Of a DNA stretch of 64,000 nt, positions 9,230-23,584 are shown piece after piece. This DNA comes from Escherichia phage vB_EcoM_P54, in sequence record PV390658.1. One strand, 5' to 3'. The translations under genes and the position numbers were made by a program. Under the pieces are notes generated by a model. The model did not search any database and was not told where the DNA came from. It saw only the letters and a list, made by a program, of their open reading frames with translations. The stretch's first letter is position 1, and every line of letters begins with the position of its first letter.

Positions 9230-10087
9230 TTAGTCTTCTGTATCGAAGTCTTCATCTTCTTCGTCATCTGGGTCTGGCAAGTCTTCATCGTCACCATCAT
9301 CAGAATCATTCGAAGGTTTGTGGTCTTTTGCGTCTTCTTCAGTGATTTCACCATTATCTTCAACACCATCAAGACCAAGCATAGCCAGTTCGTCTTCATC
9401 CAGTTCAGGTTCACCGTTAGCACCGTTACCACCAGTGTAAGGTACAAGGGTGTCAATGATAAACTGTTCCTGAATAGGTTTTGTCAGAACATTGTTCTCA
9501 AAAGTGTAGAAGTGAGTAGAAAGAATCACACTACCAAAAGAACCGTTACCAACTGCAATATCTGGATGAATTACATCATAGTTCTTGTCATCTTCATGTT
9601 TATCGGATGCTTGAGCTTTGATTTTCTTCATCGGCTGTTTAACAGCTACACGTTTACCATTTACTTCTTCAATCAGCATTACAGGGAATGACTGTTTAGC
9701 TGTCCACACAGCACCATCTTTATAAGCTGCTGCACGACTTACTTTCAAGATGTAGTAAGTGTCTGCTTCAAATGGTGGTTTGCAACCAAACTTCTCTTCG
9801 AAGTCATCTGCATCAACCGCTTCAGTAGTAACTTTATCCCAACCTTCTGGGTTTTTCTTAGACTTAGTGAACTCTTTAAACAGTTTGTTACCATCTTCTG
9901 CCAGAATTGAAACACTGTAGTTGCAGTCTTTGCCTGGGAATTTCTTATCAATGGATTTACCTTTTCCCGGACGTGGTGAAGTGTTCAGGTAATAAAACCA
10001 GACATCTTTCAGAAGGTAACGCAGAGTTTGACGTTCAGTACCATTGTACTTCTCTACCGGAGCTTTCATTTTAACAACTTTAGACAT
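9230..10087 (-). CDS. putative ssDNA-binding protein with acidic C-terminal tail (T7 gp2.5-like)
   Basis: 285 aa; C-terminal ~60 aa strongly acidic ending DEDFDTED with a penultimate aromatic, as in T7 gp2.5; lies in the replication module. Assignment rests on the tail and context. Confidence 0.45.
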   Translation of the reverse strand: MSKVVKMKAPVEKYNGTERQTLRYLLKDVWFYYLNTSPRPGKGKSIDKKFPGKDCNYSVSILAEDGNKLFKEFTKSKKNPEGWDKVTTEAVDADDFEEKFGCKPPFEADTYYILKVSRAAAYKDGAVWTAKQSFPVMLIEEVNGKRVAVKQPMKKIKAQASDKHEDDKNYDVIHPDIAVGNGSFGSVILSTHFYTFENNVLTKPIQEQFIIDTLVPYTGGNGANGEPELDEDELAMLGLDGVEDNGEITEEDAKDHKPSNDSDDGDDEDLPDPDDEEDEDFDTED

Positions 10088-19408: not shown

Positions 19409-20512
19409 ATGACAATACTGTACAAACAAAATAAAGACGGCTCTTTTAACGTCTGGTCATGCGTTGCTGTAGGTGACAAAGTTATTACAACCTACGGTAA
19501 AGAAAATGGCAAGATGATGTTTGAAGAGTACACAGCAGAACCTAAAAACATCGGTAAAAAGAATGAGCGTAACGCTGAACAGCAAGCTCTCTTTGAAGTT
19601 GCTGCTAAGTATAAAAAGCAGGTTGACCGTAAAGGCTACGCTTACACAAAAGAGTCTGCACAGAATACTGAGAAGGTAGGTGTACAGCTTGCTCATGATG
19701 CTGCAAAGGTTAGTCATGCAAAGTATCTGAAGTTCCCTGCTGATGCTCAACCGAAACTTGATGGTGTCCGTTGTAGGATTTCAAGGCACTTGAGTATTGG
19801 CAGTGTATTTACAGCATATTCTCGTGAGAATACTGTTTACAAAATCCCTACTGAACTAATACCTGACATTATGGCAATGTTAAGGCTCCACAAAGATGTT
19901 GATGAATTTGATGGAGAGATTTATGCTCATGGGTGGGACTTAGAAGATATCGTCTCCATGATTAAAAATGAAGACAATCCTGACAGACACTTGCTCAAGT
20001 TTTACTGGTACGATATCTGTGACAGTACTAAGACGTGGCCTGAGCGTAGAGATATTATTGAGACTTCACCATTGAATGACTTTAGAGATGGCTGTAAAGT
20101 TGTTCCTGTTAAGTCTCGTCGTGTAAATTCTTGGGAAGAGTTTGATGAAGCCCATGATAAGTGGGTTGAAGCTCAGTTTGAAGGTGCAATGTACCGTTCA
20201 ATCTCTGAAGACTCCTTCTATGAGTGTTGTCACCGTTCATACTTCTTGATTAAGCACAAGAAGATGCACACTGAAGAGTTTAAAGTGACTGGTGTAAAGA
20301 CTGATAAGCGTGGTCATGGCAAGTTCGTTGTAGAGACTCTTCCTAACGTCTTTGTAGATGTCTCATGGAAGACTACTCATGAGAAGAAACAGTATCTTGC
20401 TGAGCATCCTGAAGAGTTTATCGGGAAACCTTTAACGGTTCAGTTCCAGAAGATGACTCGTAAGGGGTCTTTACAGTTCCCTGTTGGGCTGGTTATACGA
20501 GATTATGAATAA
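19409..20512 (+). CDS. ATP-dependent DNA ligase
   Basis: Adenylation motif I KLDGVR; size and layout like T7-type ligases; start set at ATG 19409 behind GAGGA. Confidence 0.8.
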   Translation: MTILYKQNKDGSFNVWSCVAVGDKVITTYGKENGKMMFEEYTAEPKNIGKKNERNAEQQALFEVAAKYKKQVDRKGYAYTKESAQNTEKVGVQLAHDAAKVSHAKYLKFPADAQPKLDGVRCRISRHLSIGSVFTAYSRENTVYKIPTELIPDIMAMLRLHKDVDEFDGEIYAHGWDLEDIVSMIKNEDNPDRHLLKFYWYDICDSTKTWPERRDIIETSPLNDFRDGCKVVPVKSRRVNSWEEFDEAHDKWVEAQFEGAMYRSISEDSFYECCHRSYFLIKHKKMHTEEFKVTGVKTDKRGHGKFVVETLPNVFVDVSWKTTHEKKQYLAEHPEEFIGKPLTVQFQKMTRKGSLQFPVGLVIRDYE

Positions 20513-20518
20513 AAGTTG

Positions 20519-20546
20519 TTGACATAGAAAATTTGGTGAGTATACT
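20519..20546 (+). promoter_or_regulatory. sigma70-like promoter (TTGACA-16-TATACT) embedded in an 8 bp inverted repeat
   Basis: TTGACA at 20519-20524, TATACT at 20541-20546; GGTGAGTA (20535-20542) pairs with TACTCACC (20566-20573). Confidence 0.5.
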
Positions 20547-20619
20547 GAGCAGCATAAACCAACGGGTACTCACCAGCATCACTTAAGAGTCTTCTAAGAA
20601 GGTTTTTAAGTGATGCTCG

Positions 20620-20689
20620 GTCAGGTATGGTGCGGTGGTGTAAGGTGGTGTCAGGTGTAGTATGGTGCGGTGATGTGAGGTATGGGTAG
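20620..20689 (+). repeat. pentanucleotide-periodic tract (GGTNN x14)
   Basis: Reads GGTCA GGTAT GGTGC GGTGG TGTAA GGTGG TGTCA GGTGT AGTAT GGTGC GGTGA TGTGA GGTAT GGGTA. Confidence 0.75.
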
Positions 20690-20767
20690 TTAGTCTCAGC
20701 TACATTAAAATGAGACTTACCTTTTTAAAAGGTCTTTAAACAGGGTATTTTAATAAGGTAGTGTCAG

Positions 20768-20829
20768 GTTAGGTTAGGTGCGTTTTGGTAGGGTAGGGTA
20801 AGGTTCGGTAAGGTATGGGTGGATGGTAG
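20768..20829 (+). repeat. pentanucleotide-periodic tract (GGTNN x12)
   Basis: Reads GGTTA GGTTA GGTGC GTTTT GGTAG GGTAG GGTAA GGTTC GGTAA GGTAT GGGTG GATGG. Confidence 0.75.
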
Positions 20830-20908
20830 TAGCCACGTTAAAAATCTACCAAGTTTCTAAAGAGTCTTCTGTTGAGGGTTCTTTACAAACAACTTAACAA
20901 TCAACTAA

Positions 20909-21514
<606 letters not shown>

Positions 21515-21516
21515 TT

Positions 21517-21957
21517 ATGAATACAAAAGCATTAGCAGCAAAGTTTAGTTACGGTGACACTGTATCACATTCTGAGATGGATACCTTCTTAGGTATTGCG
21601 AAGCCAACTTATCAAGGTGACATTGTTAAGTACGAAGATGAAATGAAGGCTTATGCACTTACACGTCTAAACCGACTTGAGAAGTTTATTGAGAAGCTCC
21701 TTAAAGAAGAGAAGATTTATCTGGTTGCTTCAATGGGTGTTGGTTATCGTGTGGTTGAGCCTAAGCATCAAGCAACTATTGCAAAACGCAAAATGTCTGG
21801 TAAGATTGGTCGTGCTTTAAAGCAAGCCACTCAAGCAATTGAGAATGTGAACACTATGGCACTTAGCCATCAAGAACGTTCACGACTGATTGAACAGCAA
21901 AACCATTTAGCTGCTATGAAAGCTAACATTAACAAGCAACGTAGAAAACCTTTCTAA
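21517..21957 (+). CDS. hypothetical protein (146 aa), cassette gene 2
   Basis: ORF track; followed by a terminator hairpin at 21969-21992. Confidence 0.5.
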   Translation: MNTKALAAKFSYGDTVSHSEMDTFLGIAKPTYQGDIVKYEDEMKAYALTRLNRLEKFIEKLLKEEKIYLVASMGVGYRVVEPKHQATIAKRKMSGKIGRALKQATQAIENVNTMALSHQERSRLIEQQNHLAAMKANINKQRRKPF

Positions 21958-21968
21958 GTTGACTAGGT

Positions 21969-21992
21969 AGCCTCTTCGGAGGCTCCTTTTTA
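21969..21992 (+). terminator. rho-independent terminator after cassette gene 2
   Basis: AGCCTC-ttcg-GAGGCT hairpin followed by CCTTTTT. Confidence 0.65.
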
Positions 21993-22020
21993 AAAGGTCT
22001 TTAAGAGGGTCTTTTAATAA

Positions 22021-22090
22021 GGCTCGGCAATGTTCGGCATGGTCTGGTATAGTCCGGTGCTGTTCGGCGTGGTAAGGTGAGGTATGGGTA
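22021..22090 (+). repeat. pentanucleotide-periodic tract (GGYNN x14)
   Basis: Reads GGCTC GGCAA TGTTC GGCAT GGTCT GGTAT AGTCC GGTGC TGTTC GGCGT GGTAA GGTGA GGTAT GGGTA. Confidence 0.75.
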
Positions 22091-22158
22091 GTTAATCGGA
22101 GCTACATTAAAATTCGATTACATCACTTAAGAGTCTTCTAAGAGGATTTTTAAGTGTT

Positions 22159-22218
22159 GTGAGGCGAGGTACGGTCGGGTATGGCTATGTCTGGTATGGT
22201 TTGGTATGGAAGGATGGC
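22159..22218 (+). repeat. pentanucleotide-periodic tract (GYNNG x12)
   Basis: Reads GTGAG GCGAG GTACG GTCGG GTATG GCTAT GTCTG GTATG GTTTG GTATG GAAGG ATGGC. Confidence 0.7.
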
Positions 22219-22260
22219 AGCAGCCTTATAAAAAATCTGCCAAATAAGCTATAAAATCTG

Positions 22261-22295
22261 TTGACAAGTCAGGTGTTATAGCTTATTTTTATACT
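22261..22295 (+). promoter_or_regulatory. putative promoter with TTGACAAG box flanked by an 11 bp inverted repeat
   Basis: TTGACA 22261-22266; candidate -10 TATTTT (17 nt spacer) or TATACT (23 nt spacer); ATAAGCTATAA / TTATAGCTTAT brackets the -35. Confidence 0.4.
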
Positions 22296-22333
22296 CAATG
22301 TAATACAAAATTTAATATAACTTTGAGGTCATT

Positions 22334-22717
22334 ATGAAAAAGATTTTATTAGCTGCTGCAATGGTTATGGCAATGAATTTACCAGTCAATGCAACAGAAC
22401 TCCCAAATGTGGACTTATCAGGTGTTCCAGAAGACACTTGCCAGATTGTTAAAGGTGTTGCTCTAGCTAATGGTGAGCTACTTAAACCAATCTCTGAAGA
22501 ATCTTTGACAGAGATGACTGATAAGGTAACTGACTATCAGTATCGTGTTCTTGCAGAGTATTTCCTGCAATCTGCAAACATTAAAGAGAAACACCGTGAT
22601 GATATTGATGTACAGGCTATGCTCAACCACCGTATCCAGTTTAAAGAAGACTTGATGCAAAAAGCTATGTATGGTGTTGAGTATTTCTTAGAAAACAGAA
22701 GCTGCACAGGTATTTGA
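22334..22717 (+). CDS. putative secreted/periplasmic protein (127 aa)
   Basis: N-terminal signal-peptide-like MKKILLAAAMVMAMNLPVNA; GAGGT RBS. Confidence 0.5.
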   Translation: MKKILLAAAMVMAMNLPVNATELPNVDLSGVPEDTCQIVKGVALANGELLKPISEESLTEMTDKVTDYQYRVLAEYFLQSANIKEKHRDDIDVQAMLNHRIQFKEDLMQKAMYGVEYFLENRSCTGI

Positions 22718-22718
22718 T

Positions 22719-22931
22719 ATGGCTCTTAAAAAGTTACATCCCAGAAGCGGTTATGGTAAGATAATTGACGATACAGACGGCTTTACAGTCTTTACAGTTA
22801 TCTGTCAAGATGATTCACAGATTGAAAAGGCTCTTGATGATTATCTTAACGATGAACGTGAAAAGGTTAGAGCTACAAACATAGATTCATTGATTGACAC
22901 TTCACGCAAACGGAAGAAGAAAGATGAATGA
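22719..22931 (+). CDS. hypothetical protein (70 aa)
   Basis: ORF track. Confidence 0.4.
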   Translation: MALKKLHPRSGYGKIIDDTDGFTVFTVICQDDSQIEKALDDYLNDEREKVRATNIDSLIDTSRKRKKKDE

Positions 22932-23223
22932 GACTTTTGACCCTTATGCTCCACAAGATGATTGGGAGGCTGACAGAGAGGCTGAAATGGAGAGTTATAT
23001 TTGCCCAATGGATGTAGACGAAATGAGAGACTTCGTTGCACATCGTTTTAAGAGAGAGATTAAATCCAGAGGTCTTTCTCAAGAACAAGTTGCTAAAATT
23101 TGTGGTATCTCTCAAGCTCGTGTATCCAACATAATCAACCTCACTGGTAATGTCTCTCTTGAGTTTATGTTGGAAGTATGTGAAAAATTTGGTGTTAACT
23201 TTAATTTAAGGCTGGCAGATTAA
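22924..23223 (+). CDS. helix-turn-helix DNA-binding protein (XRE-like)
   Basis: LSQEQVAKICGISQARVSNIIN is a classic HTH; start set at ATG 22924 overlapping the upstream stop. Confidence 0.5.
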   Translation: MNETFDPYAPQDDWEADREAEMESYICPMDVDEMRDFVAHRFKREIKSRGLSQEQVAKICGISQARVSNIINLTGNVSLEFMLEVCEKFGVNFNLRLAD

Positions 23224-23224
23224 T

Positions 23225-23584
23225 ATGAAACGTGAAAACATTATCCACTCTGAAAACTTCGCATTAGGCTTTTATGGTGTACCTACTCACCTTGAAAAGT
23301 ATTACGGTGTAAAGATTCTTTCCAACCTCATTATGGCTTACAAAGATGGTAAGATTAAGCATACTGAGAAGAAACGTGTCATGGGTTACATGGCTGTAGG
23401 TTCAGCAATCTCAAACATTAAGCTGGAAACAACTAGCAGTAAGATTGTGAAAGACCACTTCATCAAAGAGCTTTACCAGAATCTTGATGGTGTAGATGTT
23501 CAGGCTGTTTGGCTGGATGTTGATGGTCATAACTACACAAGTTTCGTTTTCAAAAACGATGACATCAAGTGTCTGTTCCCATAA
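23225..23584 (+). CDS. hypothetical protein (119 aa)
   Basis: ORF track. Confidence 0.45.
   Translation: MKRENIIHSENFALGFYGVPTHLEKYYGVKILSNLIMAYKDGKIKHTEKKRVMGYMAVGSAISNIKLETTSSKIVKDHFIKELYQNLDGVDVQAVWLDVDGHNYTSFVFKNDDIKCLFP

Follow-up and report, generated by a model that had tools for sequence, protein, structure and literature searches.

The window analysed here is a 64,000-nucleotide stretch of Escherichia phage vB_EcoM_P54 (PV390658.1), read on one strand from 5' to 3'. It belongs to the genus Felixounavirus; 238 phage records match it, the best at 95% identity. Downstream of a DNA ligase gene there is a cassette of two genes, vipr and vap, and the two intergenic regions on either side of this cassette are occupied by tracts in which a G followed by a pyrimidine recurs in phase every 5 nt. 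Two of the units formed by a tract and its 3' tail, here called vrRNA1 to vrRNA4, lie upstream of vipr-vap and two lie downstream (Table 1). A preliminary description of this DNA, made from its letters without database searches, had correctly spotted the element as non-coding and periodic. The promoter-like site just past the ligase gene could serve the transcription of vipr and of the two vrRNAs that precede it.

Table 1. Features of the locus in the window; names follow the assignment argued in the text.
Feature	Coordinates	Strand	Remarks
Sigma-70-like promoter, TTGACA-16-TATACT	20519..20546	+	11/12 consensus matches; just past DNA ligase stop codon
Upstream module A, hairpin-forming (AGCATCACTTAAGAGTCTTCT / AGAAGGTTTTTAAGTGATGCT)	20575..20617	+	abuts vrRNA1
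vrRNA1 guide region	20614..20683	+	14 pentamers
vrRNA1 3' tail, H-type pseudoknot	20684..20721	+	covariation
Upstream module B (CCTTTTTAAAAGGTCTTTAAACAGGGTATTTTAATAA)	20720..20756	+	abuts vrRNA2
vrRNA2 guide region	20757..20816	+	12 pentamers, unit six degenerate (GTTTT)
vrRNA2 3' tail, pseudoknot (GGGTGGATGGTAGTAGCCACGTTAAAAATCTACCAAGT)	20817..20854	+	covariation
vipr	20927..21514	+	195-aa RAMP protein, phrog_4652
vap	21517..21957	+	146-aa accessory gene, phrog_5926
Terminator-like hairpin AGCCTCTTCGGAGGCT, then CCTTTTT	21969..21984	+	after vap
Upstream module B	21985..22020	+	abuts vrRNA3
vrRNA3 guide region	22021..22085	+	13 pentamers
vrRNA3 3' tail, pseudoknot	22086..22123	+	covariation
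Upstream module A	22120..22160	+	abuts vrRNA4
vrRNA4 guide region	22158..22207	+	10 pentamers; orphan guide
vrRNA4 3' tail, pseudoknot	22208..22245	+	P1 AAGG/CCTT, P2 TGGCAG/CTGCCA

Is the periodicity more than chance? When G-T in phase with a period of 5 was counted in 60-nt sliding windows, the count peaked at 12 of 12 inside the tracts, and a threshold of 9 of 12 left only the four tract clusters in the entire 64 kb. On the reverse strand the same scan reached a maximum of 6. Since the high counts are confined to four clusters, the periodicity is real and far past chance. All four tracts are on the plus strand and hold 10–14 pentamers each. In the 5-nt register, vrRNA1 reads TGCTC GGTCA GGTAT GGTGC GGTGG TGTAA GGTGG in its first half and TGTCA GGTGT AGTAT GGTGC GGTGA TGTGA GGTAT in its second. 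The preliminary description had reported four tracts with a strict GGY every 5 nt; the number and the period stand, but the strictness is slightly overstated, as the first G is present in 75% of units over the homologous tracts described below. Its tract positions were essentially right, except that the ends took in some bases of the conserved 3' tail (GGGTAG.../GGAAGG...) and that the second tract begins 11 nt earlier than was described.

Other phages, where a search had been suggested, carry pentameric tracts as well, both at 20 related loci and at loci with vipr relatives of 37–40% identity. With the window, the related loci form a set of 21 loci and 88 tracts, of which 87 passed the quality filter and 67–68 are unique. 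Among 67 unique tracts, 98% have G at position 2 of the unit and 100% have C or T at position 3; position 1 is G in 75%, T in 14% and A in 10%. The entropies of positions 1 to 5 in these tracts are 1.05, 0.15, 0.49, 1.92 and 1.88 bits, the last two positions being near-random, and pairwise identity in a tail-anchored comparison is 0.81 at GGY positions versus 0.32 at NN positions. The tracts of the clade combine a conserved GGY with a hypervariable NN, and it is the information in these variable positions, a gapped guide, that the preliminary description overlooked. The final pentamer is GGTAT in all four tracts (20679–20683, 20812–20816, 22081–22085 and 22203–22207) and in 41 of the 67 unique clade tracts. 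The AT of this last unit rarely matches a target in the comparisons described below, so that GGTAT behaves as belonging to the constant 3' handle and not to the guide proper. An Rfam scan of 19500–23500 at permissive E-values gave chance matches only. Parts of these elements had been labelled in earlier annotations without a function, two tracts in phage wV8 appearing in part as 'DR_4' direct repeats and the tails in phage ASO1B as terminators.

Could the tracts instead act as tandem two-tetrad G-quadruplexes (G4) in RNA or DNA, as had been proposed from their spacing? Each formally fits (G2N3)n and would be flagged by a pattern-based predictor, and ViennaRNA puts one marginal G4 in tract 1. 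They share GG runs and short loops with the thrombin-binding aptamer, a two-tetrad G4; unlike the aptamer, they have no predicted stability gain, a conserved pyrimidine, T or A at the first G, and informative loops. Three tracts fold identically with the G4 model of ViennaRNA on or off, one G4 adds 0.9 kcal/mol to the stability of the remaining tract, and no tandem array is predicted. Nor are the tracts more stable than their shuffles: three fall slightly below them, by less than one standard deviation, and tract 2 is far weaker (-2.4 kcal/mol, where its shuffles average -10.7 kcal/mol). The absence of the first G from 25% of units would break the G4 registers. A fixed pyrimidine after GG and a free NN have no G4 rationale, and both are explained by the pockets of the Vipr protein (10.64898/2026.04.26.720927). 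G4 formation also leaves unexplained the gapped matches to satellite genes reported below, and we regard it as a very improbable functional unit here. The low predicted fold stability suits a guide that is kept single-stranded for protein loading.

The 38-nt tail that follows each tract contains two interleaved helices. In vrRNA1, P1 joins 20686–20689 with 20700–20703 and P2 joins 20692–20698 with 20711–20717, with an A-rich connecting loop. The 25 distinct tails align without gaps, with P1 in columns 3–6 and 17–20 and P2 in columns 8–15 and 28–35. Nine of the 12 pairs are changed on both sides, 88.7% of the cells are paired versus 25–44% when the partners are slid, and none of 500 shuffles reaches the observed covariation score. 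Within the window itself, the P2 helix of vrRNA3 (TAATCG/CGATTA) covaries with respect to that of vrRNA1 (AGTCTCA/TGAGACT).

The protein encoded by vipr is identical to the Vipr of phage SUSP1 at 192 of 195 residues (98%), and the preprint that defines the SUSP1 clade does so by a Vipr identity above 90%. Its model has a Cas7/Csm3-like RAMP fold, the relatedness being at the level of the fold, with 9–14% identity. It is a single-RRM RAMP with a glycine-rich loop and a thumb, and its gene adjoins the repeats. Residues H17, E71, M72, R138, C173, D177, W178 and R179, which contact GGY, are all present; the contact residue given as T175 in the preprint is V175 both in the window Vipr and in SUSP1 as aligned. 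By analogy with SUSP1, Vipr is the predicted effector that binds the GGY motifs. The product of vap is identical at 144 of 146 residues (99%) to that of the gene adjoining vipr in SUSP1; its single-sequence model is of low confidence (pLDDT 70), and a fold search with it was uninformative and gave no confirmation of the DNA-binding fold predicted for this protein. Pfam holds no family for Vipr or vap, and in PHROGs both match only families without an assigned function. Neither of the flanking genes, the DNA ligase upstream and a 127-aa ORF downstream, matches a Cas family.

Relatives of the 195-aa protein gave 520 matches. Loci with relatives of 37–40% identity, on unrelated metagenomic phage contigs, have flanking tracts of 9–20 units, in the form (GGCNN)n or (GGTNN)n. 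Because tracts flank even relatives at this distance, they belong with the Vipr protein. In two of these distant loci, L025 (3065–4003) and L026 (2385–3818), where Vipr is 37–38% identical, the tracts reach 20 units, those of L025 are GGC-rich, and many end in GGTTTTTT in place of the pseudoknot tail. Short hairpins lie between these tracts, one of them with a loop resembling that of a tRNA T-arm (GGGTGCGAATCCC). A Vipr gene 100% identical to that of the window is also found in GU169904.1 (Staphylococcus phage SA1, 91679–92263), where the locus matches at the DNA level too; this suggests FelixO1-like sequence inside the record, through a chimeric or contaminated assembly.

VIPR, for Viral Interference Programmable Repeat, has been described by one laboratory in two bioRxiv preprints of April–June 2026 (10.64898/2026.04.26.720920, 10.64898/2026.04.26.720927). 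The system comprises a phage-encoded ancestral RAMP, Vipr, with the accessory gene vap, and vrRNAs of about 100 nt made of 9–16 GGY/NN pentamers and a 3' tail; in the SUSP1 clade this tail folds into a pseudoknot (10.64898/2026.04.26.720920, 10.64898/2026.04.26.720927). In cryo-EM structures one Vipr protomer occupies each pentamer, sequestering GGY and presenting NN (10.64898/2026.04.26.720927). The NN dinucleotides pair with double-stranded DNA with one target base skipped, and binding represses transcription; in SUSP1 the vrRNAs are expressed at about 100 nt and co-purify with Vipr, and the ribonucleoprotein binds dsDNA (10.64898/2026.04.26.720920, 10.64898/2026.04.26.720927). The locus at 20519–22245 is almost certainly a type II VIPR locus of the SUSP1 clade. 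We are equally confident that its tracts supply the guides for four VIPR vrRNAs, an element that is real, most probably functional and already known. The statement in the preliminary description that no phage element of such architecture had been described was thus overtaken by these preprints. Its other proposal, of iterated binding sites for a protein, holds in that one Vipr protomer sits on each pentamer (10.64898/2026.04.26.720927), but the substrate is RNA and not dsDNA at half-turn spacing.

Iterated sites in DNA were also considered in another form, in which a protein of replication, priming or packaging would bind double- or single-stranded sites, as at an origin, at T7-type primase pentanucleotides or in Chi-like arrays. 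Strand asymmetry, G-richness and an intergenic position would fit, and the tracts contain GGGTC/TGGTC-like pentamers, which we take to resemble the pentanucleotide sites of T7-type primases. The tracts, however, always travel with vipr, even at 37–40% identity and beside different replication genes; a covarying RNA pseudoknot follows each of them; and it is under a single, specific gapped rule that their variable positions agree with foreign genes. This makes DNA sites of any such kind extremely improbable.

The trp leader of Bacillus subtilis has repeats of a triplet and a 2-nt spacer that are bound by ring-shaped TRAP. The window tracts resemble it in their triplets with 2-nt spacers and in having about 13 repeats, and hairpins and one terminator-like site lie nearby, so that a ring protein wrapping 11–14 NGY triplets might be imagined to control termination in a vipr/vap operon. 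The two systems share an oligomer that reads about 11 trinucleotides with 2–3-nt spacers in single-stranded RNA at a 5-nt period. TRAP, however, consists of small beta-sandwich subunits closed into a ring, acts by attenuation and takes no information from its spacers, whereas VIPR has an open helical RAMP filament and uses the spacers as a DNA-reading guide; attenuation does not predict target information in the spacer dinucleotides. No TRAP-family domain is present in the neighbouring proteins, and the binder, a RAMP, assembles into a helical filament and not into a ring (10.64898/2026.04.26.720927). TRAP-like attenuation is accordingly given next to no weight. Three further candidates, a Shine-Dalgarno-like sponge for 30S subunits, pairing with tRNA CCA ends, and boxA/Nus antitermination (prompted by a GGTCTTTAA resemblance), were dropped on the RAMP fold, the tail covariation and the gapped target matches.

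What do the guides of this VIPR locus read? When 5,426 complete E. coli genomes were searched with the locus by BLAST, 152 of them proved to hold vrRNA-like chromosomal copies. They sit in an integrated element of about 10 kb that is the satellite of the preprints, where an E. coli satellite phage is given as the natural target of the SUSP1 clade (10.64898/2026.04.26.720920, 10.64898/2026.04.26.720927); 482 of the 5,426 genomes match a 4.8-kb segment of it. The satellite (loci L028–L045) encodes a large serine recombinase, baseplate and tape-measure proteins, small ORFs and sometimes an HNH endonuclease or a Dam methylase. It carries at most one vrRNA, and the annotation of the fetched loci lists no ORF of the size of vipr. 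There are four or more integration sites (inside yecE/DUF72, tonB-yciI, wrbA-ymdF and lpxL-mdtG), and the element is often disrupted by IS elements. The tail genes that they share suggest that the phage and this element stand to each other as helper and satellite.

Every guide was scored against 18 satellite variants with skip lengths of 0 to 3 and a cut-off of at least 80% NN match, the conserved last unit being left out of the scores of the window guides. With a skip of one base, 51 of 68 real guides reached the cut-off versus 2 of 68 shuffled ones. The corresponding numbers of real and shuffled guides were 1/68 and 2/68 without a skip, 3/68 and 0/68 with a skip of two, and 1/68 and 1/68 with a skip of three. 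Raw sequence thus gives back the published 1-nt-skip rule independently of the preprints. The skipped base is at codon position 3, the wobble position, in 24 of 34 high-quality matches, that of vrRNA1 included.

The guide of vrRNA1 matches at 26 of 26 NN positions in the satellite tape-measure gene (L033, from strain A65EC, 9452–9489), a score equalled by none of 1000 and none of 300 shuffles; its predicted 1-nt-skip target is TCGCAGATGGCTGGTAAGGGTCAGGTGATGGCTGAGGA. For vrRNA2 the match is 20 of 22, also in the tape-measure gene (L035, from strain E110019, 8597–8628, and L040, 6929–6963), and for vrRNA3 it is 21 of 24 in a small satellite ORF, with none of 1000 shuffles equal in either case. 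Over its first 11 units vrRNA3 matches 21 of 22 (L034, 12319–12356). The matches of vrRNA2 and vrRNA3 are imperfect, at 88–91%, among 18 satellite variants sampled from 482 carrier genomes. At least three of the four window guides are, on these matches, aimed at genes of the E. coli satellite phage, mostly the tape-measure gene. For vrRNA4, with the gapped guide GA.GA.AC.CG.AT.TA.CT.AT.TT, the best score in the 18 satellite loci is 14 of 18, equalled by 959 of 1000 shuffles; the window and 27 phage loci likewise gave no match above shuffles, and the exact 18-base 1-nt-skip pattern is absent from IMG/VR viral contigs.

Two further observations concern guides and their units. The broken unit GTTTT of vrRNA2 (20782–20786) nevertheless has a TT that matches the satellite target, so a degenerate unit inside a guide is evidently tolerated. 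Read with a skip of one base, a widespread satellite-borne vrRNA (L029, 20004–20068) agrees at 20–22 of its 24 NN positions with REP-like palindromes (AGGCCTGATAAGCGTAGCGCATCAGGCA) that lie in the chromosome outside the satellite. These matches lie at L031 19423–19457, L035 17311–17345 and in six other loci, and none of 1000 shuffles reaches 21.

Might the main job of the locus be something else, such as regulation of phage or host genes or action against other competitors, with the satellite matches secondary? That vrRNA4 has no satellite target would fit, as would the 17 of 68 clade guides without a match of at least 80% in the sampled satellites, and VIPR of other clades targets prophage regulators and other VIPR loci (10.64898/2026.04.26.720920, 10.64898/2026.04.26.720927). 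Three of the four window guides and 51 of the 68 clade guides match the satellite, however, and no significant match to the helper phage itself is found in the 64-kb window, where the best self-targets of the four guides under a 1-nt skip reach 68–73%, within the range of shuffles. We therefore consider a different main job unlikely, if less so than the alternatives above. As at least three of four guides read satellite genes, the most likely role of the VIPR locus is to arm the helper phage against its parasite.

The mechanism we propose is that of SUSP1 applied to this phage. Each tract would be the guide part of a vrRNA of about 90–110 nt, with 10–14 pentamers and a 38-nt pseudoknot tail. 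Vipr, as a minimal Cas7-like RAMP, would polymerise on the vrRNA with one protomer per pentamer, burying G1, G2 and Y3 and leaving N4N5 exposed; the first three positions would be kept because Vipr buries them. The exposed dinucleotides would pair with one strand of dsDNA, every third target base being skipped. With two bases read and one skipped, a guide of 13 units would read 26 bases over 38 bp, and its binding would silence transcription of the target. Expression as small RNA, formation of the ribonucleoprotein, binding to dsDNA and repression are expected to hold in vB_EcoM_P54 by extrapolation from SUSP1.

Directly 5' of every phage vrRNA there is a module of 35–40 nt, of two types, A (CATCACTTAAGAGTCTTCTAAGAGGGTTTTTAAGTGATG) and B (CCTTTTTAAAAGGTCTTTAAGAGGGTCTTTTAATAA). 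Their shared core, GTCTTYTAAGAGGGTYTTTTAA, occurs at four sites in the 64 kb, each just 5' of a tract. The arms of module A at vrRNA1 are 21 nt long and 86% complementary. The modules are kept before vrRNAs in 20 related phage loci and are absent before the satellite vrRNAs. A degenerate copy is present at about 20857–20890, ahead of vipr. Module and tail types are combined differently by position, as A-X, B-Y, B-X and A-Z for vrRNA1 to vrRNA4. A sigma-70 scan gave no promoter-like matches inside the upstream modules, and the VIPR discovery preprint, so far as its text could be searched, discusses neither such modules nor vrRNA biogenesis (10.64898/2026.04.26.720920). Tentatively, the modules may be dedicated elements for vrRNA biogenesis or control, acting as a promoter or operator peculiar to the phage or as a hairpin for processing, and may with the three interchangeable tail types delimit cassettes that are swapped by recombination; we hold this to be possible rather than probable. 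If it is true, cassette swapping would be a route of guide turnover, giving 67 unique guides while Vipr stays 98–100% identical.

Two other promoter-like sites were seen at the downstream end of the locus. A 9/12 sigma-70 match at 22024–22053 falls within the vrRNA3 guide tract. Just past vrRNA4, at 22242–22288, there is a 19-nt inverted repeat (AAATAAGCTATAAAATCTG / CAGGTGTTATAGCTTATTT) that overlaps the promoter-like TTGACA-17-TATTTT at 22261–22289 and could act as the operator of the gene that follows.

The type II VIPR of SUSP1 has the same order of DNA ligase, vrRNA, vipr, vap and vrRNAs, the same GGY/NN guides of 10–14 units, the same pseudoknot tail families, the same class of satellite target and the same 1-nt skip. 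The two differ in layout, as SUSP1 (L017/L027) has one vrRNA upstream and three downstream, as the preprint reports, against two and two in the window, and in genus, SUSP1 being a Suspvirus. Among related loci of Felixounavirus and Suspvirus (L001–L020) there are 2–5 vrRNAs per locus, 1–3 upstream and 0–3 downstream of vipr-vap, and almost all guides differ between phages although Vipr is 98–100% identical. The NN strings of the window likewise differ almost completely from those of SUSP1 and the other loci, 68 being unique among 88 tracts. The SUSP1 system has been studied experimentally, whereas that of the window is known from its sequence. What the analysis adds to the known system is small: the upstream modules, the orphan guide of vrRNA4 and the satellite guide that matches REP elements.

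Class 1 CRISPR-Cas, with its filament of Cas7, Csm3 or Cmr4 on crRNA, shares with VIPR the RAMP fold with a G-loop and thumb, subunits that polymerise on a guide RNA and flip bases at a fixed period, and a variable guide that ends in a structured handle, which is conserved. VIPR has a period of 5 nt and buries three bases, whereas class 1 CRISPR has a period of 6 nt with one base flipped. Unlike CRISPR, VIPR reads its guide non-contiguously, skipping one target base for every two read, has no reported PAM and is encoded by phages. Repeat searches of the locus gave the pentamer tracts and short flanking modules only, and no repeat-spacer array with identical repeats of 25–40 nt; cas1, cas2 and the genes of a multi-subunit effector are absent from it, vipr and vap being the only genes it holds.

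VIPR is a newly reported way of RNA-guided DNA reading, with a gapped guide, a 20-kDa RAMP and no PAM, and a link to the ancestry of CRISPR has been proposed for it. It is standard equipment of the FelixO1-like phages, which are widely used in the typing and biocontrol of Salmonella and E. coli. For vB_EcoM_P54, the guide matches give concrete, testable pairings of helper and satellite.
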